From positions 1-60,503 of IMG/VR virus record IMGVR_UViG_3300051212_001597: a stretch of 60,503 nt of DNA. The stretch is one strand, 5' to 3'. This stretch comes from a virus. Lineage: Duplodnaviria > Caudoviricetes. The translations under genes were made by a program, and so were the position numbers. Under the pieces are notes generated by a model. That model searched no databases and had not been told where the DNA came from. It saw nothing but the letters and a program-made list of their open reading frames with translations. Position 1 is the first letter of the stretch. Each line of letters opens with the position of its first letter. Below are positions 3,611-51,679 of this stretch, in pieces.

Positions 3611-3728
3611 TCAAGTTAGAATGATAGTTAGAGCTATCACTAACGGCACAAATCAAAACTACAGAGTTAGAGAACGAAAGAATCGCAAGGGGCGCTATCT
3701 AAGCGTCTCAATTGACAAGAACCGCTGA
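3564..3728 (+). CDS. Small basic hypothetical protein
   Basis: SD-like AAGGA upstream of ATG at 3564. Confidence 0.5.
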   Translation: MKNTIHIPVTSSNQIDQVRMIVRAITNGTNQNYRVRERKNRKGRYLSVSIDKNR

Positions 3729-3996
3729 AATGTACAGACTATTCATCGACTATCCAATCAATGCCTCCTCGACAGAGGAGGCTGTTCTTATCGCACGAAA
3801 GATTATTGAAGGAACTGTTGTTTCAGAAGATAACAAGTCCTTCATGCTGTCTTCTGGTATTGATCAGATCAATTACAGGCTTGGTCATGACGAGGACAGG
3901 CAGAATAGAAATTATCTTGTTATGACAGAATCGGGACACGGCTCCACGAAAAAAACCAAAGTTTTCTTGGAGAAAAAGGTAACAGAAGACGTATAA
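3712..3996 (+). CDS. Hypothetical protein
   Basis: ORF fills the gap before the RNA array; start may be ATG at 3730. Confidence 0.55.
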   Translation: MTRTAEMYRLFIDYPINASSTEEAVLIARKIIEGTVVSEDNKSFMLSSGIDQINYRLGHDEDRQNRNYLVMTESGHGSTKKTKVFLEKKVTEDV

Positions 3997-3997
3997 T
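3992..3997 (+). promoter_or_regulatory. Putative -10 element (TATAAT) for the tRNA/ncRNA array
   Basis: Perfect TATAAT 9 nt before the first tRNA; no convincing -35 element. Confidence 0.45.
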
Positions 3998-4006
3998 AAG
4001 ATGTAA

Positions 4007-4077
4007 GCGCTGTGGGCGGAGAGTTTCGCAGACCGACTTATAATCGGTTCAACAAGGGGCAGCACCTTGACGGCGCA
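4007..4077 (+). tRNA. tRNA-Ile(UAU), non-canonical D and T arms
   Basis: Acceptor GCGCTGT/ACGGCGC, anticodon arm ACCGA-CTTATAA-TCGGT, T arm CAAGG-GGCAGCA-CCTTG, discriminator A. Confidence 0.8.
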
Positions 4078-4084
4078 TTTGGTT

Positions 4085-4157
4085 GCGAGTGTAGCTCAGC
4101 TGGTAGAGCCTTGGTTTTCCAAACCAATTGTCGCGGGTTCAAGTCCCGCCATTCGCT
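4085..4157 (+). tRNA. tRNA-Gly(UCC)
   Basis: Canonical cloverleaf: GCGAGTG/CATTCGC, anticodon loop TTTCCAA, T loop TTCAAGT, U73. Confidence 0.95.
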
Positions 4158-4160
4158 TTA

Positions 4161-4261
4161 AGAGATCGCGTTGATCTCTACTAGACACAGAAGGTTTTAG
4201 CTTTTAAGTAGATTATTCTACAGAATAAAGGTGAGGACGGACGACGCACTTCTGTGTTTAG
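4161..4261 (+). ncRNA. Unassigned structured RNA A (hairpin plus a domain closed by a 13-bp stem)
   Basis: AGAGATC-GCGTT-GATCTCT, then CTAGACACAGAAG (4181-4193) pairing with CTTCTGTGTTTAG (4249-4261); internal GTAGA/TCTAC hairpin. Confidence 0.5.
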
Positions 4262-4263
4262 AT

Positions 4264-4336
4264 GGCTTCCTAGTCCAAAGGCAGAGACAGAAGACTTAAA
4301 ATCTTCACAGTGTGGGTTCGAGTCCCACGGAAGCTA
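4264..4336 (+). tRNA. tRNA-Leu(UAA) with a short variable region
   Basis: GGCTTCC/GGAAGCT, GAAGA-CTTAAAA-TCTTC, GTGGG-TTCGAGT-CCCAC, A73. Confidence 0.9.
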
Positions 4337-4355
4337 CTGTTAGAAATCCCAGTCA

Positions 4356-4455
4356 ACGGAGGGGCGCGCACTCCGTAGAAGAACGCGATTAAGCAAAAAA
4401 TCGAACTCGTCGCAAGGGTTCGCAGAGGGATGCGGGCAATCTGTAGAAGAACGCA
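4356..4455 (+). ncRNA. Tandem H-type pseudoknot RNA (two copies)
   Basis: Units at 4356-4387 and 4422-4455 share an AGAAGAA linker and show compensatory changes in both stems. Confidence 0.6.
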
Positions 4456-4459
4456 AAAG

Positions 4460-4543
4460 GGCGAATGGTATAAAGGACGTGTGAGCCTCTTAGGGTATTA
4501 CCCACGGTTACCGTGGAATGTGGGTTCGAATCCCACTTCGCCA
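4460..4543 (+). ncRNA. tRNA-like RNA or pseudo-tRNA without a regular anticodon arm
   Basis: GGCGAA/TTCGCC acceptor, perfect T arm GTGGG-TTCGAAT-CCCAC, CCACGG-TTA-CCGTGG hairpin. Confidence 0.55.
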
Positions 4544-4551
4544 TTTCGAAT

Positions 4552-4687
4552 CTAGGTTAGTGTTTAACCTAGGTAGCGTGTGCCAAAATCTGTATAGGAA
4601 TGGCAAAAAGCCAAAAGAACCTGTACTTACAATGTAACTAAAGTTATAAAGGAAAACTCCTCCGAGTAACCTTTGGCAACACGCTAT
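4552..4687 (+). ncRNA. Unassigned structured RNA B (hairpin plus long-stem multibranch domain)
   Basis: CTAGGTTA-GTGTT-TAACCTAG, then TAGCGTGT/ACACGCTA and GCCAAA/TTTGGC closing stems; internal GTATAGG/CCTGTAC. Confidence 0.5.
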
Positions 4688-4693
4688 ATTTTA

Positions 4694-4766
4694 GCTCTCT
4701 TAGCTCAGTTGGTAGAGCATTCGGCTTTTAACCGATAGGTCGTAGGTTCGATCCCTACAGGGAGCA
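4694..4766 (+). tRNA. tRNA-Lys(UUU)
   Basis: Canonical cloverleaf GCTCTCT/AGGGAGC, anticodon loop CTTTTAA, T loop TTCGATC. Confidence 0.95.
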
Positions 4767-4781
4767 TTAAAGGAGTAAGTT

Positions 4782-5132
4782 ATGAAATTCAAGAAAATCG
4801 AAACAAACAAAACAACACCTTCTGAGATTACAGAAAAAGACTTCAAAATGATTCGTGTAACAATTAACTTTCCAGTACACAAGTCTTTTGGTCTTCATGA
4901 CATCTTATCAGAACTAGAAGGAATCGTTTCTGCCTATCCTCCAGAAAGGAATAGAGAAGAATTTATGGTCATTGAAGAATCTGAAGTGACAAAGGAAGAT
5001 CTCTCAAAATGGGTATCAACAAGTAAAACAACATCTGGCTGGGTTTGCTATAACCTAGACTCAGACAAAGAATATGAGATTGGAAAAATTTTCAAGAAGT
5101 CTTCGCGGCCGAGTGGGAAACGGCGGAGTTGA
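4782..5132 (+). CDS. Hypothetical protein, paralog of 36248-36553
   Basis: Strong SD AAGGAG; shares MxFKK, KMxxVTxxFPVxK, DILSE and IEESxVT with the 36248 ORF. Confidence 0.7.
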   Translation: MKFKKIETNKTTPSEITEKDFKMIRVTINFPVHKSFGLHDILSELEGIVSAYPPERNREEFMVIEESEVTKEDLSKWVSTSKTTSGWVCYNLDSDKEYEIGKIFKKSSRPSGKRRS

Positions 5133-5212
5133 CAAGACTTGCTCTTGCGTAAAACGATTTATTAAATTAATCGACAAAGCAAATAAACTAGTTCGAATCT
5201 AGTCGAAGACTA
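5098..5212 (+). ncRNA. Enlarged tRNA-like RNA (about 115 nt)
   Basis: AGTCTTCG/CGAAGACT acceptor, D arm GCCG-AGTGGGAAA-CGGC, T arm ACTAG-TTCGAAT-CTAGT, long insertion. Confidence 0.6.
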
Positions 5213-5225
5213 TAAAGGAAACAAA

Positions 5226-5900
5226 ATGGATATTTCAGAATTACTAATAAGCCTATCTTTTAAATCAAACTTAAACGAATTTCCACAAGCAAGACTAGCT
5301 GTCCACAATTCTGCTACCGTGAGATCTGAAGATCTAAACGAGCAAATTTTAATTGGGCCTGCGTTCATTAATATTCAAGAATCTGAAAAGGGATACACCC
5401 TAAATCTCGCAAATTCTTTTGAGTGTCCTTTGTATTTTGTTTTAGACCTCAATATGAAAACTGACTCAGAGCCAAAGAGGGTCCGAATTCAAATTCCAGA
5501 AAGCGTCAAACAACAAATAGATGAACAGAATAAATCTGTTCAAGATACGGCGTCTATTAATTACGTAAAATGTCAAAACGAGTTTTCTTTTGATGGAACG
5601 CAACTAGATACTGTTAAAAGTACAGAAAAATACGTTGATCTTATTTGGGATGGAAGAAAAACATCCACACCTTATATGAAGCATCGTATAGTAACTAAAA
5701 TAGATACTAACGATAATATCGCCTTTAAGGTTGATTTTTTCGATATTACCGATATAAATATGGATGGCCAAACAGACAAAAAAGACGCAGAAATCTGTAT
5801 AGCTAGTTGGAATACAGCTGAAGGCGATGTAAATTTAGATGGAACTACTGACTCTCAAGATGTATCAATTATAATGAGTCGATGGGAAACGCATGAATGA
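5226..5900 (+). CDS. Protein with C-terminal dockerin-like (DxNxDG) repeat pair
   Basis: DINMDGQTDKKDAEICIASW...GDVNLDGTTDSQDVSIIMSRW. Confidence 0.7.
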   Translation: MDISELLISLSFKSNLNEFPQARLAVHNSATVRSEDLNEQILIGPAFINIQESEKGYTLNLANSFECPLYFVLDLNMKTDSEPKRVRIQIPESVKQQIDEQNKSVQDTASINYVKCQNEFSFDGTQLDTVKSTEKYVDLIWDGRKTSTPYMKHRIVTKIDTNDNIAFKVDFFDITDINMDGQTDKKDAEICIASWNTAEGDVNLDGTTDSQDVSIIMSRWETHE

Positions 5901-6129
5901 AGATATTAAATCTGGAGCAAAAACTAGTGAATTTTGGGTATCATTGGCTCCTTTAATTTTGAGCTTTTCAAAAATCTCAGAAGAAAACACAGAGAACTCA
6001 AAGTATATAATGATATGCGGCTGCATTTTGGGATGCTTTTATATAGCTAGCAGAACGGCAATAAAAATAAATGTTAGACGAACAAAAAATAAAGAAGAGA
6101 TACAGGTCGGCTATCAAAGTAATCAATGA
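5893..6129 (+). CDS. Small membrane protein, possibly holin-like
   Basis: KTSEFW motif, two hydrophobic segments, basic C-terminus. Confidence 0.5.
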   Translation: MNEDIKSGAKTSEFWVSLAPLILSFSKISEENTENSKYIMICGCILGCFYIASRTAIKINVRRTKNKEEIQVGYQSNQ

Positions 6130-6963: not shown

Positions 6964-7653
6964 TCAAATAGCCGAAGGCCGATTATCGGGTGGACCCTTA
7001 GGATCGTCAAAGTCCACGGAGTCATTAACCCCTTCGGCCTTTTCTATTTTATAGTAATAACTAGAATCTTCTCCCGATATAACCCATCTGTCGCTGACGC
7101 TTTCTGTTTTATATACTTTTGTATCAACCTTGTAATCTGGCTTTTCTGGAAAAGGCTTTGTCGTGAAAGACATGTCTCTCCAGAATATTCTATTATTTGG
7201 TTGTAATGTATAGCAACCGTTGTCTAGCTCAATCATATGCAAGCACTTGTACTGTGTAGGCTCATCTGAAAAAGAGTTTCTATACCAATCGAAAGTCATC
7301 ATATAAGAACCCCAGTGTTCAGACCCGTCTTTAAACACGATCTTACATCTCATCTCCGAAAGATATTCGTATTCAATGACTGTCACATTTTCGCTGTAGC
7401 AGTCCCAAAGTTGAAGGAAATCCAACGGCATTTCATCTGCGTCATCACAAGAAGCTAGCATGTGAATAGGAACCCTGCTGCGAAGAGTTCCATTGTCCAA
7501 CATAACATTAAAAAGAAGCGCTCTTCCAGCATTTGATTGTGCTGAAAAAACACAAACTTTCTCAAACCCATCTATTGATTCGTCTCCTCCGTACAGATGG
7601 CGCTTTCTAAGCAGGCAATAGAAGTGCGGAATGTTTACATTTAACTTAGGCAC
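6964..7653 (-). CDS. Conserved hypothetical phage protein
   Basis: LNVNIP...LQLWDC...YKCLHMIELDNGCYTLQPNNRIFW pattern. GTG start at 7653 chosen because it lies 7 nt after GTGTATT. Confidence 0.75.
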   Translation of the reverse strand: MPKLNVNIPHFYCLLRKRHLYGGDESIDGFEKVCVFSAQSNAGRALLFNVMLDNGTLRSRVPIHMLASCDDADEMPLDFLQLWDCYSENVTVIEYEYLSEMRCKIVFKDGSEHWGSYMMTFDWYRNSFSDEPTQYKCLHMIELDNGCYTLQPNNRIFWRDMSFTTKPFPEKPDYKVDTKVYKTESVSDRWVISGEDSSYYYKIEKAEGVNDSVDFDDPKGPPDNRPSAI

Positions 7654-7657
7654 AAAA

Positions 7658-8194
7658 ATGAATACACCTAAAGAAACTAGAAATATCATAAATCATTACT
7701 GGTATTGGGAACATGAAGCAATTCGTGCTGATCTAGATACCAAAAGGCATAATTTTTCTGTGCTATGCTGCAACCTAGGGCAAGACTTTAATATAAGCAG
7801 CATCATCAGAAACACTGGCGCCTTTCTACCCAAAGAGGTTATTATTTGGGGTTCCAAGCAGTATGATAGGCGTGGCACTGTCGGAACTCATAAATATATC
7901 CATGTAAAGCATTTTAAAGAAGAGTCTCTAGAAGAAATGCTGAAATACTTTGCTGGCTCTAAAATAGTCGGAATAGATAATGTTTCTAGCGCAGTAAACA
8001 TAAAAAATTACGAATGGCCAAAAGAACATTTTGTGATGGCTTTCGGCCAAGAACAGATTGGCCTAGACCAAAATATTATAAACGCATGTTCTGATGTAGT
8101 TTATATTCCTCAAGTTGGTAGTGTGAGGAGTTTGAATGTAGCTTGCGCAAGCGCCATTACTATGTATGATTACTATGTAAAACTTGACAGTTAG
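7658..8194 (+). CDS. TrmH/SpoU-family (SPOUT) RNA methyltransferase
   Basis: NISSIIRN.GAF, FGQEQIGLD and IPQVGSVRSLNVACASAITMY SPOUT motifs. Confidence 0.9.
   Translation: MNTPKETRNIINHYWYWEHEAIRADLDTKRHNFSVLCCNLGQDFNISSIIRNTGAFLPKEVIIWGSKQYDRRGTVGTHKYIHVKHFKEESLEEMLKYFAGSKIVGIDNVSSAVNIKNYEWPKEHFVMAFGQEQIGLDQNIINACSDVVYIPQVGSVRSLNVACASAITMYDYYVKLDS
7661..7667 (-). promoter_or_regulatory. GTGTAT(A/T) putative phage promoter motif
   Basis: GTGTATT on the minus strand, 7 nt before GTG 7653. Confidence 0.5.
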
Positions 8195-8208: not shown

Positions 8209-8637
8209 ATGTATAGGATCAGAGTCTTTAATCAAGACGGAACTCTTGGAGGATTTTATTCAGAAAAAGGAATAGTTTCTAGTCCAGACTTGGCTAAGAC
8301 ATATTCCACTGACTCAGAATATCAAAAAGACTTAACTGCGGCCTTTTTCGCTAGCGGTGGATTAAAGTTCCCAAAAGTTAATTACGGAGTTTCTTCTGTG
8401 CCACTAGCCGACGCAGAAAAAACTAGATATGACAGTTTTGTTTCATCTATTGCTTCTCCAAAAACTATATCATACGATATAAACAGGCAAAACTCCTACC
8501 TTCCCCCTTTTGAAGACAAACCTTCTAGATCGCAGCTAGACGAGCCTATTTTCGTTCCTTCAATAGCCGATATTGATATAAATGGCGGCGATCTATCTCA
8601 AGACCAGGATCTAGATATTGACGGCGGTGGTGCGTAG
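8209..8637 (+). CDS. Hypothetical protein preceding the tail fibre
   Basis: C-terminal IDINGG/IDGGGA motifs, often seen beside fibre genes. Confidence 0.6.
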   Translation: MYRIRVFNQDGTLGGFYSEKGIVSSPDLAKTYSTDSEYQKDLTAAFFASGGLKFPKVNYGVSSVPLADAEKTRYDSFVSSIASPKTISYDINRQNSYLPPFEDKPSRSQLDEPIFVPSIADIDINGGDLSQDQDLDIDGGGA

Positions 8638-10802
8638 TGTCAATATATAAGATAAGAGCTAGAAGAGACTTGGCCGCGACCTGGACTTCTAAAAATCCAG
8701 TTCTAGGCCTTGGCGAAATAGGTTTCGAAACTGATACAAGAAAACTAAAGATCGGTGACGGCTCTTCTTCTTGGACAGTGCTTGATTATGTTGCTTATGA
8801 TGTTGGTGCTCATAACCAAGATATATCTACAGTTAACGGACTTCAGGCAGCTCTTAACGCTAAAGCTAATTCATCGCACACACACTCAATCTCTGACGTT
8901 TCTAATCTTCAAAATACGATAAACAATCTTTCGCCATTAGTCCATAGCCACTACATATCTGATGTAACAAATCTTCAAGCATCCCTAGATAATAAGTCAG
9001 ATGTTGGACACGTGCATTCCATATCTGATGTTTCGGCTTTGCAAATAGCACTAGACTCAAAAGCAGATGTTGCACACACTCATGCATACACTCATATAGG
9101 CGCTCCAGGAATAGACAGAAGTGTTCTTTATAACTTCTCTGGTGGAATAGACTCTTCTTCTGGATTTCTTTACGACTACAACACAAGCCATCTAATAGTT
9201 TCTGGAATAATAGAGGCTAGCGGTTCAGTTGTGGCCCCGCATTTTCAAGGTGGTCTTTTAGGGGCTGTTCAGTGTCCAGTCAAAAACACAAGCGGTGGAG
9301 CTATAGGAAAAGGCGTTCCAGTTTACATAACTGGAACTGTAGGCGCAACAACAACCCTAGAAATAGCAATAGCTAGGGCTGATGATCCTACAAAAATGCC
9401 AGCTCTAGGTCTTTTGGAAGCAGAACTTTCCGCAAATGCCACAGGACACGCCACTATACTTGGAACCCTTTCAAATTTAGACACTTCAGTATTTTCCGTT
9501 GGCAACACGGTCTATGTTGGTCCTACTGGCGGCTTAGTAAACACTAGACCAACTGGCGTAAGCATACTAGTACAAAATATTGGCAGGGTCGGAAGAGTAA
9601 ACTCAAACAACGGTGAAATAATAGTAACAGGACCAGGAAGAACCAACGATGTTCCTAACAATATTACGCTAGACAGTCTTTCAGATGTAACATCTAGCGG
9701 GGCGGCTAGCGGCCAAGTCTTACTGTATAACGGTTCTTACTGGTCTTATGGAAATGTGTCTTCTTCAGGACCCGGTGGTTCTGACACTCAGGTACAGTTC
9801 AATGACGGTGGCAATCTAGGCGGTGACTCTGGTCTTACATACAATAAGACAACAGACTCTCTTACTATAACTGGAGATCTTGCAGTAAATGGCGGTGACA
9901 TTACGACCACAAGTGCCACAGGATCTTTATATAATAATACAGCAACAACAATCAATATTGGTACACAGGCAGCAATTACTACAAATATAGGTAAAAATGA
10001 AAGTGGATCGTCGGTAAGTCTTTTTGGTGGAAATATCCAATTTTTAAAAGTGGATACTGGTTCAGCGGTTCATTCCTATATTTTTGATGGTTCTTCTGAT
10101 GGAATGTGGATACAATCTAATGCTCTTGGCGGTCCTATAGAAATAGGTGATCCAGAAGGATTTAGTAACACCACAAGAATAATTGTAACACCAGATTTCG
10201 ACGCTATTCAGTTTTATTTTGCTGGGGGTGCTTACACATTCCCAAATGCCGATGGTAGCAATGGACAAGTTCTAACAACAGACGGGGCTGGTCTTTTATC
10301 GTGGGCAACCGCAAGTGTTGGAACAAAAACATACTCAGTATTCACTCCATTAGACAACCAACCACCAGCGTCCAACTACGCTACAGTTGATACTCGTAAC
10401 TCAATAATGGTTCTTGAGTTTGATGCTGCTACCGACGAATCTGCTGTATTTGTTGGTGTTATTCCAGAAGCAGCCTCTCTTGGTAGTGGACTCAAAGTTA
10501 GAATACACTGGATGGCAGATACTGCAACATCTGGAACTTGTAGATGGGGAGTTCAGATTGAAAGAATGAACACTGATGAAGATTCAGATTCGTTTGATAC
10601 TGCTACTACTGCTGGATCTACAACTAATGGTACTTCTGGTATTATAACAACAACAGAAATTACAATTACTACAATAGACTCTGTTGCTGCTGGTGAACCA
10701 TTCAGACTCAAAGTATACCGTGATGCTGACGGAACTTCGGGAACCGACGACATGACGGGTGATGCTCAACTCGTTGCCGTTGAGGTAAGGAGTGCGTCGT
10801 AA
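8637..10802 (+). CDS. Tail fibre / receptor-binding protein
   Basis: Mtd/hyaluronidase-like N-terminus RRDLAATWTSKNPVLGLGEIGFETDTRKLKIGDG; HxHxISDV repeats; GSDTQVQFND and FPNADGSNGQVLTTDGAG fibre motifs. Confidence 0.85.
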   Translation: MSIYKIRARRDLAATWTSKNPVLGLGEIGFETDTRKLKIGDGSSSWTVLDYVAYDVGAHNQDISTVNGLQAALNAKANSSHTHSISDVSNLQNTINNLSPLVHSHYISDVTNLQASLDNKSDVGHVHSISDVSALQIALDSKADVAHTHAYTHIGAPGIDRSVLYNFSGGIDSSSGFLYDYNTSHLIVSGIIEASGSVVAPHFQGGLLGAVQCPVKNTSGGAIGKGVPVYITGTVGATTTLEIAIARADDPTKMPALGLLEAELSANATGHATILGTLSNLDTSVFSVGNTVYVGPTGGLVNTRPTGVSILVQNIGRVGRVNSNNGEIIVTGPGRTNDVPNNITLDSLSDVTSSGAASGQVLLYNGSYWSYGNVSSSGPGGSDTQVQFNDGGNLGGDSGLTYNKTTDSLTITGDLAVNGGDITTTSATGSLYNNTATTINIGTQAAITTNIGKNESGSSVSLFGGNIQFLKVDTGSAVHSYIFDGSSDGMWIQSNALGGPIEIGDPEGFSNTTRIIVTPDFDAIQFYFAGGAYTFPNADGSNGQVLTTDGAGLLSWATASVGTKTYSVFTPLDNQPPASNYATVDTRNSIMVLEFDAATDESAVFVGVIPEAASLGSGLKVRIHWMADTATSGTCRWGVQIERMNTDEDSDSFDTATTAGSTTNGTSGIITTTEITITTIDSVAAGEPFRLKVYRDADGTSGTDDMTGDAQLVAVEVRSAS
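8811..9083 (+). repeat. Four 22-aa tail-fibre repeats (HxHxISDVxxLQxxLxxK)
   Basis: HNQDISTVNGLQ / HTHSISDVSNLQ / HSHYISDVTNLQ / HVHSISDVSALQ. Confidence 0.85.
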
Positions 10803-11922: not shown

Positions 11923-12675
11923 ATGAAGCAAAAACTTTTTATATCAGACCTTCACATAGCATCCAACAAATGCAAAGCAAAACTCTTATCTGAATTTATT
12001 AAAAAAGATGAGAGTTCTTGTATTTACTTGGTAGGTGATATCATTGATATTTGGCGTTTCAATCAGGCATTCAAGATGGATATTGAAACACAGACCCATC
12101 ATGTAGATTGTATCCGTCGCTTACTCAAGAAATCAAAACATGGAGAAGTCCATTATATTTGGGGAAACCATGACGAGTTCATGCACCGTTTCTCTGAATC
12201 AAAATCTTTCGGTGGAGTTCATCTCCATGAAAGGTGTGATTATGTAGCATCAGATGGTCGCCGTTATCTTGTTCTTCATGGGCATCAATTTGATCTTGTT
12301 TGCAAATATAAGATTGGAACATTCTTATCAAAGATTGGTGATTTTGGTTATGAGTGGTTAATTGATATTAATGAATGGTATAACTGGGTACGCAGAAAGA
12401 TGGGGCTTCAATATTCTTCTCTTTCCAAATATGTGAAAGTAAAGTTTAAGAAGGCAACAATGTTCATTGGAAACTTTGAAAAGCACCTTTCAGAATACGC
12501 AGAGAAGCATGGATATGACGGAGTCATTTGCGGTCATATTCATGAACCAGCCGATAAGATGATTGGTAAGATTCATTATCTTAACTGCGGTTGTTGGACT
12601 GATGAGGCAAATCTCAACTATCTGATTGACAAAGGTGATGGAAGTGGCATAATTCTATGCAGACACGAAAGATAA
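11923..12675 (+). CDS. UDP-2,3-diacylglucosamine hydrolase-like metallophosphoesterase (LpxH-like)
   Basis: ISDLH, LVGDIID, GNHD, HGHQFD, CGHIH and YLNCGCW calcineurin-like motifs. Confidence 0.85.
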   Translation: MKQKLFISDLHIASNKCKAKLLSEFIKKDESSCIYLVGDIIDIWRFNQAFKMDIETQTHHVDCIRRLLKKSKHGEVHYIWGNHDEFMHRFSESKSFGGVHLHERCDYVASDGRRYLVLHGHQFDLVCKYKIGTFLSKIGDFGYEWLIDINEWYNWVRRKMGLQYSSLSKYVKVKFKKATMFIGNFEKHLSEYAEKHGYDGVICGHIHEPADKMIGKIHYLNCGCWTDEANLNYLIDKGDGSGIILCRHER

Positions 12676-41415: not shown

Positions 41416-42376
41416 AGCGTCTTCAATAAACTCTTACAGAGGATGTGAGTTTGCTTTTTTTATGGAGCAAATATTGGAGATACCAACAAAGAGCGGAAAA
41501 AAAGCCTTATTAGGAACTATCACGCATCATGTGCTAGAACTAATGGCAAAAGCAAAAAAGCTAGGCCACGAAGGCGGCTTGCTTTTTGACCATGAAAAGC
41601 TTCTCGATATATGTTGGAATAGATATACAAGAGAAAATCCAGAAATGGATTTAAAAAAGGGCGACAAAAAATTTTGTCTTTCATCAATTCAAAAAGTTAT
41701 AAATACTTTTTATGATCCAAAAAATCTCAACGTTCTACACACAGAAAAACAGTTTAGGATACCATTAACAGATCCTGTTTTTAAATATGAATACTATGAT
41801 ATAGTAAAAGGGGTTGTTGAAAAAGGAAATTACGAGATAAGAGGAACGATAGATTTGATAACCCAAGTTGACAACGAAACTATTGAAGTTGTTGATTGGA
41901 AGACGGGGTCTAGAAAATGTTGGAACACAGGAGAGAATAAGGAGTTTGATTATCTTCAATCAAAAGATATTCAGCTAAGAATGTATGATCTTGCCTGCTA
42001 TTTAATGTTTCCACAGTACAAGAACAGGCTTCTAACTATTCATTTTATCAATGATGGTGGGCCTTTTACTGTTGCTTTTTCCGACGAAGACAGAAAAGAG
42101 ACCCTAGCCATAATAGAAAAAACATTTAAAAATATTAAATGGAACCAGCTTCCAACTAGACTAAAAGAAAGCAACGCTAGCGACAGATGGAAATGTAAAA
42201 GTGTTTGCCACTTTGGCAAAACAAAAACAGCAGCTGGCTGCAGCATTTGCGACACAATACATTCTTACGTTGTTGGAAACGGTATAGACCAGACGATACT
42301 AGAGATAGATAAGCTAAAGAAATCTAAGCAAGAGCTAAAAAACAAGACTAGCGATAGGAGAAACGTTTTTGAATAA
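41396..42376 (+). CDS. Cas4/RecB-like PD-(D/E)XK exonuclease
   Basis: SSINSY..C, GTITH, RGTIDLI, VVDWKTG, QLRMY, C-terminal cysteine cluster. Confidence 0.85.
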   Translation: MDIKFLRASSINSYRGCEFAFFMEQILEIPTKSGKKALLGTITHHVLELMAKAKKLGHEGGLLFDHEKLLDICWNRYTRENPEMDLKKGDKKFCLSSIQKVINTFYDPKNLNVLHTEKQFRIPLTDPVFKYEYYDIVKGVVEKGNYEIRGTIDLITQVDNETIEVVDWKTGSRKCWNTGENKEFDYLQSKDIQLRMYDLACYLMFPQYKNRLLTIHFINDGGPFTVAFSDEDRKETLAIIEKTFKNIKWNQLPTRLKESNASDRWKCKSVCHFGKTKTAAGCSICDTIHSYVVGNGIDQTILEIDKLKKSKQELKNKTSDRRNVFE

Positions 42377-44237
42377 TATGAACTACACACCACTACACGT
42401 ACATACATGCTGGTCACTATTAGACAGCACGGTTGATGTAAATGAATATGTCGCAAAAATAAAAGAGGCTGGAGGCTCTGCTTGCTCAATAACCGACCAT
42501 AATAATTTAAAAGCGGTTGTCCCATTCTTCAAAGCATGTAAGGCTAGGGGGATAAAGCCAATAATAGGCGTCGAAGTGGACGTTTATTTAACGGACGAAA
42601 AATTTATTGGCAGACTAACACTGATAGCCAAAAACAAAGTTGGCTACAAAAATCTAGTAAATATAGTCTCAAACGCTAGATCAGAGTCTGTGTTTAAAAA
42701 AGAGACTACGCCAAAAACTCTTTTCAAAGATCTTCACCAATACTCTAGCGGGATCATATGCATGATCGGTGACTTAAGAAGCGAAATTTTTCATTCTTGC
42801 TTTGTTAATTTTGAAATGGCGTATGGCTCAAATAGCGAGGAGGAGTGCGAAAGCCTTCTTAGGCAGGACTGGAAAGAAAAGGTAAATGAGTTATTAGAAA
42901 AATACAGGAGGGTATTTAGCGATGTATTTTTGTATTTTGATTATTCAAAACTTCCAATTATTAAGGTTTTAGGCCAAAAAATAAAACAAGAATTTGATGA
43001 AGCTATACCCTCTGTAAATGTTCACTACATATCAAAAGAAGATTATCAGATTCACAGGCTTATATCAAGCGACTCAGAGGCTTTGTCTTCAAACATAGAT
43101 GATTCTAGGATTTTTGAAGAAGAGTATTGCTTTTGCCATCTTACAAAAACAATTCCGTCTGGCGAAAAGACCAAATTGGTTGTAGATTTGGTTGAGGACT
43201 TCTCAATAGAAGAACGCCCTATGATACCAGATTTTAAGATTAAAGGACATGAAATACAGGATCAGGACGAGTATCTTAGAGATATTTGCAGAAAGGGATT
43301 CTTAGAAAAGATATCGCCAAAGATTTCTTCAGACGCAAACCTTAAAAACATCTACCTAGACAGGATTAGGCACGAGTTAGGTGTTTTCAAGCAGGCTAAG
43401 ATATCGGGCTATTTCTTAATCGTCAAAGACATTGTTGATCACATTAGGCAAATGGGCTTTCCAGCAGATAGCCGCGGCTCGTCTTCGGGCTGCTTAATTT
43501 CCTACCTAATAGGCGTATCGTCAATTGATCCAATAGTGCCAGATGCATCACTTGCATATGCAAAAGAAAGAGAGCTTCCTTTTGAAAGATTTTACAACGA
43601 AGGAAGAAATACCGCTAGTAACGTTTCTTTGCCAGACATTGATATGGACGTGCCTCCTTCCATAAGAGACGATGTTATTAAATATCTTCGCGAAAAATAC
43701 GGAAAAGATCAAGTTGCTCATATAATCACGCATTCTAGGTTCAAAGGCAAGGGTGCAATAAAAGAAGCTTTTAGAATATTAAAACCTGTTAATAATTACT
43801 TTGATGTATCCAATGAAATAACAAAGCTTTTTGTTGATGAGAGCAAGATATCAGATGAATTAAGTGAACTTCAAGAAGAAGACCCGTCATATGGAATCAT
43901 AAGATGGAATATAGATAATATTACTGATGTAAATAAGTTTTACAATCAGTACAAAGAAGCTTTTGATTTTGCTATAAAAATAGAAAAGTTGCCAAAAAAC
44001 GAAAGTGTTCATGCTGCTGGTATAATAATAGGCGATAGACCGTTATATAAGCACTTTCCAATGACATATTCAAGCAAGTTAGGTCAGATGGTGATTGATA
44101 TCGAAGGTTCAGATTTAGAAATTCTTGGAGGCGTTAAGTTTGATATATTAGGAGTTTCTGCTATAGAAAAGGTTTTCCAGATAGAGAAAATGATAAATAA
44201 AAAACTTAATGAGGTTAGATTTGGAGAATTAAATTGA
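42369..44237 (+). CDS. dnaE: DNA polymerase III alpha, N-terminal part (PHP, palm, thumb)
   Basis: LHVHT.WSLLD, ITDH, GIKPIIGVE, RGSSSG, FERF, PDIDMD, HAAG, KFDILG, then a stop. Confidence 0.92.
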   Translation: MNNMNYTPLHVHTCWSLLDSTVDVNEYVAKIKEAGGSACSITDHNNLKAVVPFFKACKARGIKPIIGVEVDVYLTDEKFIGRLTLIAKNKVGYKNLVNIVSNARSESVFKKETTPKTLFKDLHQYSSGIICMIGDLRSEIFHSCFVNFEMAYGSNSEEECESLLRQDWKEKVNELLEKYRRVFSDVFLYFDYSKLPIIKVLGQKIKQEFDEAIPSVNVHYISKEDYQIHRLISSDSEALSSNIDDSRIFEEEYCFCHLTKTIPSGEKTKLVVDLVEDFSIEERPMIPDFKIKGHEIQDQDEYLRDICRKGFLEKISPKISSDANLKNIYLDRIRHELGVFKQAKISGYFLIVKDIVDHIRQMGFPADSRGSSSGCLISYLIGVSSIDPIVPDASLAYAKERELPFERFYNEGRNTASNVSLPDIDMDVPPSIRDDVIKYLREKYGKDQVAHIITHSRFKGKGAIKEAFRILKPVNNYFDVSNEITKLFVDESKISDELSELQEEDPSYGIIRWNIDNITDVNKFYNQYKEAFDFAIKIEKLPKNESVHAAGIIIGDRPLYKHFPMTYSSKLGQMVIDIEGSDLEILGGVKFDILGVSAIEKVFQIEKMINKKLNEVRFGELN

Positions 44238-50161: not shown

Positions 50162-51679
50162 ATGACATTTGAGACATCAAACATATCGTTAAAAAACGAC
50201 AAGGCTTGGCGGCTAATACAGAATGGTCACACTATAGGCGTATTCCAACTAGAGAGTGATCTAGGCAAGAAATGGTCTGCTACAATAAAGCCCTCTAATA
50301 TAAATGAGCTTAGCGCCGTAATATCATTGATAAGACCTGCATGCCTAGAATCTGGAATGACTGAGACTTATTCAAAGGTAAAAAGTGGCTTAATTGAGAA
50401 GCCCGATTACAATGATGAGTCTGTTAATTCGATACTGTCCCCGACAATGGGCGTTCTTATATATCAAGAACAGCTTATGAAATTTGGTGGCGAAATAGCT
50501 TGGAAGGATCTTCCATACCTTGATAGACTTGTGATTGTTGATAAGCTTAGAAAAGGCATTGGTAAGAAGGATCAAAAAATAATTATTGATCTTAGAGACA
50601 AATTCATAGCAGGATGTCTTAAGAACGGCAGATCAAAAGAAATGGCTGAAAAGCTTTTTTCTCTTATCGAAGGTGCTGGCAGATATGCTTTCAACGACGC
50701 TCACGCTAAAAAATATGCGCTTTGGGCTTACAAAACAGCCTACGTAAAAGCCAACTTTCCACTTGAATTTTATTGCGTCTATCTAACCTACAGCAAAGGT
50801 AAACAGAAGCCTAGAGAGGAGATAGAGGCTTTGATAAACGAGGCTAAGATGCTTGGGATAAGCATAGAAAAACCTTCTGTTTCAAATTCAAATTTTGACT
50901 TCTCAATAAAAGATGGCGTCATTCACTATGGCCTATCTCATATAAAACAGGTTGGTGAGTCTGATGCCGAACTGATAGAATCTCTTAGACCAGCTAGTTT
51001 TACTAGTTTACTTACCACACACTTCGCGTCTTCAGAAAAAATAAGATCACTAGCCCTAGAAAGCCTTATAAATTGTGGGGCTTGCGATGAATACGGACTA
51101 TCTAGATCGTGCATGCTATCTGTCTACAACATGCTTAAGCAATTAACTCAAAAAGAGATCGAGTTTATTTTCTCAAAAATAAATTCAGAAAGCGGAGTTC
51201 TAGATTTGATTGAGGCTGTTAAAAAATGTTCTGTTGAACAATGCGTAAAGAAAAGAAAAGACATAGTTATGTCAGAAGCTTTGTCAATTGACATAAAGTC
51301 TAGCGACTCTGCAGTGATTAAAAATTCTGTTGAAAAAGATCTTCTTGGAATAGCCTTTAGTTATGATTACAATGTAAATGTCGAAGACGACTGGAGTTGC
51401 AAGGAGTGTTTCAATAAAATGCGTGTCAACAAAAACATGATTGCGAATCTAACTGTAAAAATAAACGATATCAAGATTACAAAAACAAAAAAGGGCAAAG
51501 ATCCTGGCAAGGATATGTGCCAACTTTCTATTGCAGATAACACTGGTTTTATAAACGTGGTTTGCTTCCCCGACACATACGAGAAATTTAAAAACTCTAT
51601 AGCGGTTGGTTCATACTACTGCGTAGTGCTTAAGGGAACTGGATTCGGTTGGTCTGTAAATTCAATTAAAAACGTATAA
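50162..51679 (+). CDS. dnaE: DNA polymerase III alpha, C-terminal part (fingers, HhH, OB)
   Basis: GVFQLES, LIRP, LIYQEQLM, LRKGIGKK, YAFNDAHA, YVKANFP, YGLSHIKQVG, OB-fold end. Confidence 0.92.
   Translation: MTFETSNISLKNDKAWRLIQNGHTIGVFQLESDLGKKWSATIKPSNINELSAVISLIRPACLESGMTETYSKVKSGLIEKPDYNDESVNSILSPTMGVLIYQEQLMKFGGEIAWKDLPYLDRLVIVDKLRKGIGKKDQKIIIDLRDKFIAGCLKNGRSKEMAEKLFSLIEGAGRYAFNDAHAKKYALWAYKTAYVKANFPLEFYCVYLTYSKGKQKPREEIEALINEAKMLGISIEKPSVSNSNFDFSIKDGVIHYGLSHIKQVGESDAELIESLRPASFTSLLTTHFASSEKIRSLALESLINCGACDEYGLSRSCMLSVYNMLKQLTQKEIEFIFSKINSESGVLDLIEAVKKCSVEQCVKKRKDIVMSEALSIDIKSSDSAVIKNSVEKDLLGIAFSYDYNVNVEDDWSCKECFNKMRVNKNMIANLTVKINDIKITKTKKGKDPGKDMCQLSIADNTGFINVVCFPDTYEKFKNSIAVGSYYCVVLKGTGFGWSVNSIKNV

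Follow-up and report, generated by a model that had tools for sequence, protein, structure and literature searches.

What are the RNAs that fill the space between the tRNA genes of an aquatic phage, and why are they kept there? The question is raised by positions 4007 to 5212 of the IMG/VR virus record IMGVR_UViG_3300051212_001597 (Duplodnaviria; Caudoviricetes), which was analysed over its whole length of 60,503 nucleotides (nt) and is called the window here. From the letters of this DNA, the original prediction had described an array in which tRNA genes alternate with structured RNAs, in the order tRNA-Ile, tRNA-Gly, RNA A, tRNA-Leu, a double pseudoknot, a tRNA-like fold, RNA B, tRNA-Lys, one open reading frame (ORF) and an enlarged tRNA-like fold. 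All ten elements are present at these places, and the unpaired gaps between them are indeed short (18 nt at most). Four of them are read as decoding tRNAs: Gly-UCC, Lys-UUU, a Leu-UAA with a short variable arm and, probably, a deviant Ile-UAU. The non-decoding cassettes interleaved with these tRNAs are selectively maintained. The tRNA-Ile, the pseudoknot and two tRNA-shaped elements, here called TLS1 and TLS2, are conserved with compensatory changes, and none of the four matches Rfam, with TLS1 lying at the very threshold of the tRNA model (see below). With moderate confidence, we read the locus as one transcript of the tRNA-operon type from which exchangeable RNA cassettes would be freed by RNase P and 3' processing.

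Known families were searched for by an Rfam 15 scan at the gathering threshold and by a permissive Rfam scan of positions 3900–5350 at E values up to 10. The permissive scan gave 13 matches, all of them tRNA-related or weak and well below gathering; no riboswitch (preQ1, glutamine), ribozyme, GOLLD, ROOL or transfer-messenger RNA (tmRNA) was among these 13. The elements between the tRNAs had been expected to be structured RNAs outside the known families, and this was borne out by the negative Rfam scans and by the covariation of several of them in other phages. A blastn search of positions 3900–5300 against 50,697 phage records returned only matches of tRNA length. No description of TLS1, TLS2 or the pseudoknot was found in the literature, subscription journals and supplements lying outside the scope of that search. 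In a survey of inter-tRNA spacers only five distinct spacers qualified, too few to interpret.

Conserved RNA folds between the tRNA genes

TLS2 (5098–5212 (+)) has an enlarged tRNA shape with an acceptor stem of 8 base pairs (bp), a D arm and a T arm with the loop UUCGAAU. Two of its loops are invariant: the 7-nt loop UGACAAG, which closes a 4-bp stem, and the internal loop of a long extra arm. The UGACAAG loop has a G in the place of U33; ARAGORN and Rfam make no call. In the window all six helices and both invariant motifs are present, and the family's own model, R1, scores 96.5 bits over its full length (E 3e-20). Among 54 sources R1 found 20 members of TLS2, and the sole other match among the 21 listed reached 16.4 bits. 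In the alignment fitted to R1, 98.7% of 538 cells are paired over 18 distinct sequences and 17 out of 30 pairs show compensatory changes, compared with 3.1 ± 1.4 in shuffled controls (0/500 as high) and 1–4 in slid controls. The enlarged tRNA-like fold proposed for this place is thus real.

A clear homologue of TLS2 is present in L018. A pattern made from the two invariant segments of TLS2 found 18 IMG/VR loci, to which L020 was added as a 19th with one mismatch. Two exact TLS2 patterns had no match in 185,579 GTDB species genomes, a search restricted to exact matches, by which absence is not shown. In 19 out of 19 other loci TLS2 is found at the same position: it starts 3 nt after a T arm and a 3' acceptor strand, which form the acceptor piece of a tmRNA, and is followed by the 5' acceptor strand. 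The gathering score of the Rfam family tmRNA_permuted (RF04321) is reached in 17 of these 19 loci, L031 and L034 lying below it, and in the Rfam alignment TLS2 appears as an insertion of about 125 nt in the spacer between the two tmRNA pieces. In the window TLS2 stands alone, without tmRNA halves and flanked by ORF116 and ORF224; no tmRNA match was obtained in the window at gathering score, nor in 3900–5350 at E up to 10.

Aquatic phages commonly have two-piece tmRNAs (PMC9004378). Transcripts of permuted tmRNA genes lose their spacer through cleavage by tRNA-processing enzymes, and one permuted tmRNA whose spacer contains an intact tRNA-Ala has been reported as unique (PMC11915505). TLS2 resembles such spacer cargo by its position in all 19 other loci. 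Unlike the spacer tRNA, it is not decoding, forms a conserved family of its own and has in the window a copy without tmRNA halves. The same tRNA-shaped RNA therefore occupies a slot of a tRNA cluster in one phage and an excised tmRNA spacer in 19 others, a placement which links the small RNAs of phage tRNA clusters to the spacer cargo of two-piece tmRNAs. In L036 (529–916 (-)) the spacer of the two-piece tmRNA holds TLS2 plus a complete tRNA-Pro(UGG).

Several further observations concern the loop and the interior of TLS2. A target for the loop was sought, but sequence complementary to it occurs at no consistent place in the neighbourhood of TLS2. A DNA promoter inside the element was considered and rejected: TTGACA and TAAAAC are 15 nt apart, and the promoter scan shows no site there. 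In contig L037 (7690–7797) a spacer between tRNA-Gly and tRNA-Thr holds a hairpin that shares the UGACAAG loop and its GUCU/AGAU stem with TLS2; a T-arm-like hairpin comes next, and the loop motif may be a portable module.

TLS1 (4459–4544 (+)) is tRNA-shaped as well, with a 6-bp acceptor stem, a canonical T arm and a D loop that contains an extra hairpin of 18 nt. A hairpin with a loop of 3 nt (5 nt in the orthologues) replaces the anticodon arm, and there is no 7-nt anticodon loop. The tRNA-like fold predicted here agrees with an Rfam tRNA score of 29.3 bits against a gathering score of 29, the alignment showing 21 nt inserted in the D loop. Orthologues were found in L018, L019 and L020 by an IMG/VR pattern that combines the pseudoknot tail with a T loop 55–85 nt downstream. 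These three contigs share the order tRNA-Glu, tRNA-Gly(UCC), a variable element, one pseudoknot, the TLS1 orthologue and tRNA-Thr. Among the 54 sources the family model R2 gives 82–98 bits for the four TLS1 members (82 for the window), and true tRNAs stay below 40. Over three distinct sequences 54/54 cells are paired and 6/18 pairs are compensatory, a count that 0/500 shuffles reached, with a slid control of 1. TLS1 appears to be derived from a tRNA, since it and the adjacent tRNA-Leu share 94% identity in the T arm (repeat family D1).

L018 (2192–2288) and L025 (6692–6784) contain one more conserved element of tRNA shape, for which neither ARAGORN nor Rfam makes a call; in L018 it sits between tRNA-Gly and the pseudoknot. 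It has a 7-bp acceptor stem and two internal hairpins that differ in sequence and are still paired. In L020 about 600 nt (9735–10335 (-)) with an open frame on the opposite strand lie between tRNA-Glu and an apparent duplicated 3' fragment of tRNA-Glu; this looks like an insertion into the array.

The double pseudoknot consists of two copies of one H-type fold arranged as direct repeats. In PK1 (4356–4387 (+)) stem 1 pairs 4356–4361 with 4371–4376 and stem 2 pairs 4365–4368 with 4384–4387, followed by the paralogue PK2 (4422–4455 (+)) and separated from it by a 7-bp hairpin (4402–4422 (+)). A 12-nt repeat at 4375 and 4443 marks them as copies, and the family model R3 scores 55.8 bits for PK1 and 52.2 bits for PK2. 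The common build is a stem 1 of 5–6 bp, a G+C-rich stem 2 of 4 bp and an A-rich loop 3. Between PK1 and PK2 a G-C pair of stem 1 is changed to A-U and a C-G pair of stem 2 to U-A. There are five strong copies, the two in the window and three orthologues, and over four distinct sequences 35/36 cells are paired, with one compensatory pair per stem and none in slid controls. Both stems are kept, and the double pseudoknot of the original prediction is confirmed. Minimum-free-energy folding, a method unable to show pseudoknots, gives a z-score of -0.99 for this region; values near -1, obtained for the pseudoknot, TLS1 and TLS2 alike, are what is expected of pseudoknots and tRNA shapes.

The position of the pseudoknot is conserved, too. 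Its 3' end always lies 3–14 nt before a hairpin, TLS1 or a tRNA, and in the window PK2 is followed by TLS1 within the 3–9 nt that define this family, the order being the same in L018, L019 and L020. A weaker variant (R3 19.8 bits, E 0.005) was found in L159 and L160, directly after an ORF and a few nt before a true tRNA-Gly. A pattern for the two-copy pseudoknot had no matches. A 17-nt pattern of the pseudoknot tail matched in IMG/VR mostly a conserved coding stretch, judged recombinase-like by translation alone, and added no member.

The first element of the array (4007–4077 (+)) folds into a cloverleaf with the anticodon loop CUUAUAA, a 7-bp acceptor stem and a 6-bp anticodon stem. Its D loop is short and lacks GG, its T loop reads GGCAGCA and is not of the T-Psi-C type, and the fold has a z-score of -2.28. 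Neither ARAGORN nor Rfam (including E values up to 10) calls a tRNA at 4007–4077. The same deviant form occurs in L027 and L028, where the sequences of the anticodon stem and T stem differ yet pair. L023, L025, L026, L035 and L036 carry a tRNA-Ile(UAU) of canonical form whose acceptor begins in the same way, and ARAGORN calls the other members of this family tRNA-Ile(UAU). For seven tRNA-Ile sequences, that of the window aligned with genes from six related contigs, RNAalifold yields a cloverleaf with 10/23 compensatory pairs. We therefore read 4007–4077 as a probably functional, structurally unusual tRNA-Ile(UAU). The claim of a tRNA-Ile holds as far as cloverleaf, anticodon loop and compensatory pairs go, and lacks the call by either tRNA-finding program.

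The other three tRNAs had been named correctly: each is called by ARAGORN and by Rfam at the gathering threshold. These are tRNA-Gly(UCC) (4085–4157 (+), Rfam 69.6 bits) and tRNA-Lys(UUU) (4694–4766 (+), 71.3 bits), both with no encoded CCA, and tRNA-Leu(UAA) (4264–4337 (+), 55.7 bits), which has a short variable arm and thus a class I shape. Bacterial tRNA-Leu usually has a long variable arm. In this phage group the tRNA-Leu genes measure 73–74 nt and have a short one (window 4264–4337; L019 33–105; L021 258–331), and the version in L031 has 85 nt. The deviant tRNA-Ile, without the contact motifs of D loop and T loop, and the short-armed tRNA-Leu should be of interest to tRNA biologists.

RNA A (4158–4263 (+)) consists of a 7-bp hairpin (4161–4179) and a long stem-closed hairpin (4181–4261), RNA B (4545–4688 (+)) of a hairpin (4552–4572) and a stem-closed domain with three hairpins (4573–4687). 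Both are unusually stable: RNA A folds with -36.5 kcal/mol (z -5.22) and RNA B, folded as 4545–4693, with -48.7 kcal/mol (z -6.83), and in either case 0/200 dinucleotide shuffles were as stable. An alignment of the two RNAs with each other gave no convincing homology. The RNA B insertion begins with 11 nt (4545–4555) that are identical to the T loop and 3' T stem of TLS2 (5192–5202) and may have been left there by recombination between tRNA-like modules. A complementarity between RNA A and the pseudoknot tail was rejected, as by our estimate about two 12-nt inverted repeats with one mismatch are expected by chance in 1.4 kb and as it is without conservation in L018–L020.

Exchange of cassettes between related phages

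Comparison with other contigs can indicate which parts of the array behave as units. The DNA runs that hold window sequence are freshwater and lake metagenomes. Contigs of two DNA runs from different studies join position 4544 to 4689 and thereby skip RNA B (4545–4688, 144 nt) exactly; the strains without RNA B keep the array otherwise intact. Among the metagenome matches listed there is at least one JGI contig, L015 (1.5 kb), which overlaps window positions 4689–6100 and whose sequence upstream of tRNA-Lys is unrelated to both of these forms. Close strains thus differ in what precedes tRNA-Lys, and three forms of this slot are seen, with RNA B present, absent or replaced. L015 is identical to the window in 73/73 positions of tRNA-Lys and 113/115 of TLS2; ORF224 is 96.6% and ORF116 88% identical. 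Within the array, ORF116 (4782–5097) is a local divergence hotspot, with 88% DNA identity compared with 96–100% in its flanks.

The contigs of these two lake DNA runs keep the stretch 3950–4544, and in one run this stretch is about 97.5% identical, with 15 substitutions and 3 indels in 595 nt. Among the differences listed, whose counts are small, several fall into paired positions. The hairpin between the pseudoknots gains a U-A pair in place of U.G through G4417A, and TLS1 gains G-C in place of G.U through U4496C. In RNA A the changes at 4203 and 4228/4229 can be taken as a switch from U-A to C-G with one bulged U, and a further change, at 4232, makes G-C out of G.U. Two changes are disruptive: G4481A opens a terminal pair and U4347C a long-range pair of the energy fold, one that we distrust.

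The more distant contigs that share array elements are, judged from their proteins, relatives of the window phage. The ORF at 11923–12675 has 94% identity with its counterpart in L019, the reductase 77.5% with that of L018, and a phrog_3704 protein 65% with one that adjoins the tmRNA of L030. ORF94 has 43% identity with a protein encoded upstream of tRNA-Ile in L025. By comparison of these loci, the cassettes behave as exchangeable cargo in slots bounded by tRNA-type ends. The original prediction had spoken of a cassette of small RNAs, and discrete behaviour is seen in the clean 144-nt indel of RNA B and in TLS2, which stands alone here and inside a tmRNA spacer elsewhere.

Proposed release of the cassettes and the alternatives

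The array would be transcribed together with its co-directional neighbours. The acceptor stem and T arm of each tRNA-shaped unit would provide the determinants for RNase P and for 3' processing with addition of CCA, and host enzymes would cut at each unit and thereby free the tRNAs, TLS1 and TLS2. Between these units lie RNA A, the pseudoknot RNA and RNA B, which would come free as pieces of about 106, 120 and 145 nt, respectively. We infer such a release because acceptor stem and T arm are kept, no CCA is encoded and the usual home of TLS2 is an excised spacer; the gaps between the units measure only a few nt. Release by host tRNA processing had been suggested in the original prediction, and the layout of the array is the one to be expected from it.

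A number of results weigh against this reading. The TATAAT hexamer at 3992–3997 (+), which had been noted ahead of the array, is present and has a weak -35 element (TGGAGA at 3968; together 10/12 consensus matches). It overlaps the stop codon of the ORF 3712–3996, and the region holds 3 promoter-like sites compared with 4.5 ± 2.1 in shuffles; its role as a promoter is unsupported. Homologues of RNA A and RNA B beyond near-identical strains were not found by blastn in 20 loci, 12 whole records and the phage collection. The covariation of the pseudoknot is not significant, being reached by 59/500 shuffles, and is suggestive only. In TLS1 the first acceptor position is mismatched in all members. 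For TLS2, the pairs were counted in an alignment fitted to the model itself, and most of the compensatory changes come from three divergent lineages (window, L030, L020). The background identity of flanking genes is 96–97%, and the array RNAs are not clearly more conserved; near relatives at about 97.5% identity give little power. The comparison of runs was made on Logan contigs of four runs, which give no read ends. One RNA-library contig (4529–4666) crosses the junction of TLS1 and RNA B and another (5101 to beyond 5250) the 3' end of TLS2; such contigs across predicted cut sites are weak hints of expression and may represent precursor RNA or DNA. The RNA-library runs X21 and X24 provide small parts of the array as contigs, and the parts they do not cover are uninformative.

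The same cuts could also be the whole purpose of the array. The tRNA-shaped units would then recruit RNase P and 3' nucleases in cis, pseudoknots and closed stems would shield the new ends from exonucleases, and the freed pieces would be idle. We consider this rather unlikely. TLS2 is always found where two cuts are needed, between tmRNA halves, and bacterial two-piece tmRNAs are matured by tRNA-processing enzymes (PMC11915505). The window copy of TLS2 lies between two ORFs, tRNA-Ile begins 10 nt past the stop codon of an ORF, and the pseudoknot ends in every case at the short distance from a hairpin, TLS1 or tRNA described above. However, a processing handle needs only acceptor stem, T arm and elbow, whereas TLS2 adds the invariant 7-nt loop and the invariant internal loop on covarying stems. 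Typical spacers of permuted tmRNAs are short (the spacer of the Rfam model itself has about 25 nt), and the array is otherwise intact in the strains that lack RNA B. As TLS2 combines invariant loops with covarying stems and occurs in the company of tmRNA, tRNAs and a TrmH methylase, our guess is that a trans-acting role on a tRNA- or translation-related factor is to be favoured over mere punctuation.

Taken one step further, release by host tRNA processing may serve an exchangeable toolkit of RNA effectors of aquatic phages, in which TLS2 is a trans-acting tRNA mimic that captures a host factor. We regard this extension as speculative and, as it stands, improbable. The target of TLS2 would be a translation, tRNA or ribosome-rescue factor or a defence enzyme. 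The pseudoknot, RNA A and RNA B would likewise act as effectors, which strains would exchange when their hosts change.

The original prediction had considered that the RNAs are decoys or antitoxin mimics against anti-phage defences. In this case tRNA look-alikes or hairpin RNAs would bait tRNA-targeting nucleases or toxins, or would mimic RNA antitoxins. Anticodon nucleases are known to target tRNA-Lys(UUU), and a tRNA-Lys(UUU) is carried by the array; the look-alikes retain acceptor and T arms, and cassettes come and go between strains, as is typical of genes in an arms race. On the other hand, TLS1 has a loop of 3–5 nt in the anticodon place and the loop of TLS2 is not anticodon-like, so that neither could bait anticodon nucleases. 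Furthermore, the cassettes are without tandem repeats like those of known RNA antitoxins, and the neighbouring genes offer no defence or toxin context in Pfam and PHROG. An activity as decoy or antitoxin mimic is thus without support, a function as bait for anticodon nucleases is unlikely, and we judge this explanation as a whole to be very improbable.

Finally, the look-alikes might be dying tRNA genes and the hairpins chance or leftover sequence, in keeping with the tRNA-derived T arm of TLS1, the orphan state of RNA A and RNA B and a conservation among near relatives no higher than background, but this decay is hardly credible and for TLS1, TLS2 and the pseudoknot largely refuted, given the compensatory pairs in TLS2 (17/30), TLS1 (6/18) and tRNA-Ile (10/23) across contigs with 43–94% protein identity and the folding energies of RNA A and RNA B, matched by 0/200 shuffles.

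Release of cassettes by tRNA processing can be compared with several known systems. RNAC and RNAD of phage T4 are processed by RNase P, and the window array is like them, compared by description only, in having non-tRNA RNAs among phage tRNA genes. It is unlike them in its at least five distinct cassettes, two of them tRNA-shaped, and in the documented exchange between slots. The T4 RNAs are described as small RNAs of unknown function (PMC3014915) whose expression was detected by Northern blot (PMC9697503). GOLLD and ROOL are structured RNAs of phages and prophages, also of unknown function, which are often found near tRNA islands, with tRNAs sometimes embedded in GOLLD (PMC12286853). They share with the array that they are phage-borne and lie beside tRNAs; they are single cage-forming RNAs of 580–800 nt, whereas the modules in the window are separate, 35–145 nt long and without Rfam match.

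In MALAT1/mascRNA and in mitochondrial tRNA punctuation, a non-decoding tRNA-shaped element recruits RNase P and RNase Z and thereby defines the ends of the neighbouring RNA, and in MALAT1 an upstream triple-helical element protects the new 3' end. The order of pseudoknot and TLS1 resembles that of the MALAT1 triple helix and mascRNA. In contrast to that eukaryotic system, the pseudoknot follows a tRNA or hairpin and not an mRNA in 4/5 loci; the Rfam mascRNA model reaches 15.6 bits against a gathering score of 42.5, with its match on tRNA-Gly. Ro60 binds the bacterial Y RNA YrlA, a tRNA mimic; this non-coding RNA contains a tRNA-like domain (PMC4201824). The likeness lies in the tRNA-like domain of a non-coding RNA, but the Rfam YrlA match has 17.4 bits against a gathering score of 69 and is located elsewhere (4033–4137).

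The comparison thus adds at least three uncatalogued RNA families, the pseudoknot, TLS1 and TLS2, which are supported by covariation (suggestive in case of the pseudoknot) and come with searchable models and coordinates. If the cassettes are released by RNase P and 3' processing, the array would be a natural phage counterpart of engineered tRNA-flanked RNA arrays, and the 50-year-old question of the function of RNAs of the RNAC/RNAD type would gain many comparable cases.

Neighbouring genes and the source phage

The single ORF that had been placed in the array is a real gene. ORF116 (4782–5132 (+)) encodes a protein without assigned function, and its final 35 nt and stop codon lie within TLS2. 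It has homologues at 77–78% identity, plus IMG/VR matches at 36%. The latter, the only two relatives found by an IMG/VR protein search, are without tRNAs and align to residues 1–95 only, the C-terminal residues that overlap TLS2 having no counterpart; the same search gave none for ORF224. ORF116 has no match in Pfam or PHROG, and its AlphaFold model is unusable (pLDDT 41.7).

A TrmH-family methylase had been noted downstream and is indeed present as a TrmH/SpoU-family RNA 2'-O-methyltransferase at 7631–8194 (+) (PF00588, E 2.5e-22); its link to the array is one of context. In the related contig L036 a homologue with 60% identity lies within the tRNA array.

The window, a 60.5-kb virus record with a completeness estimate of 39%, encodes among others a split DnaE-type polymerase, a ribonucleotide reductase, tail-fibre proteins and the SpoU/TrmH methylase. 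The DNA polymerase (PHROG 405) is divided into two ORFs, 42369–44237 and 50162–51679, which are about 6 kb apart; one half of the family profile, N-terminal or C-terminal, is matched by each. Its nearest named matches are annotated as DNA polymerase III alpha, and the identity to the nearest named phages is only about 30%. Mtd is the variable protein of diversity-generating retroelements, and an Mtd N-terminal domain together with phage tail repeats is found in a tail-fibre-like protein of 721 amino acids encoded at 8637–10802.

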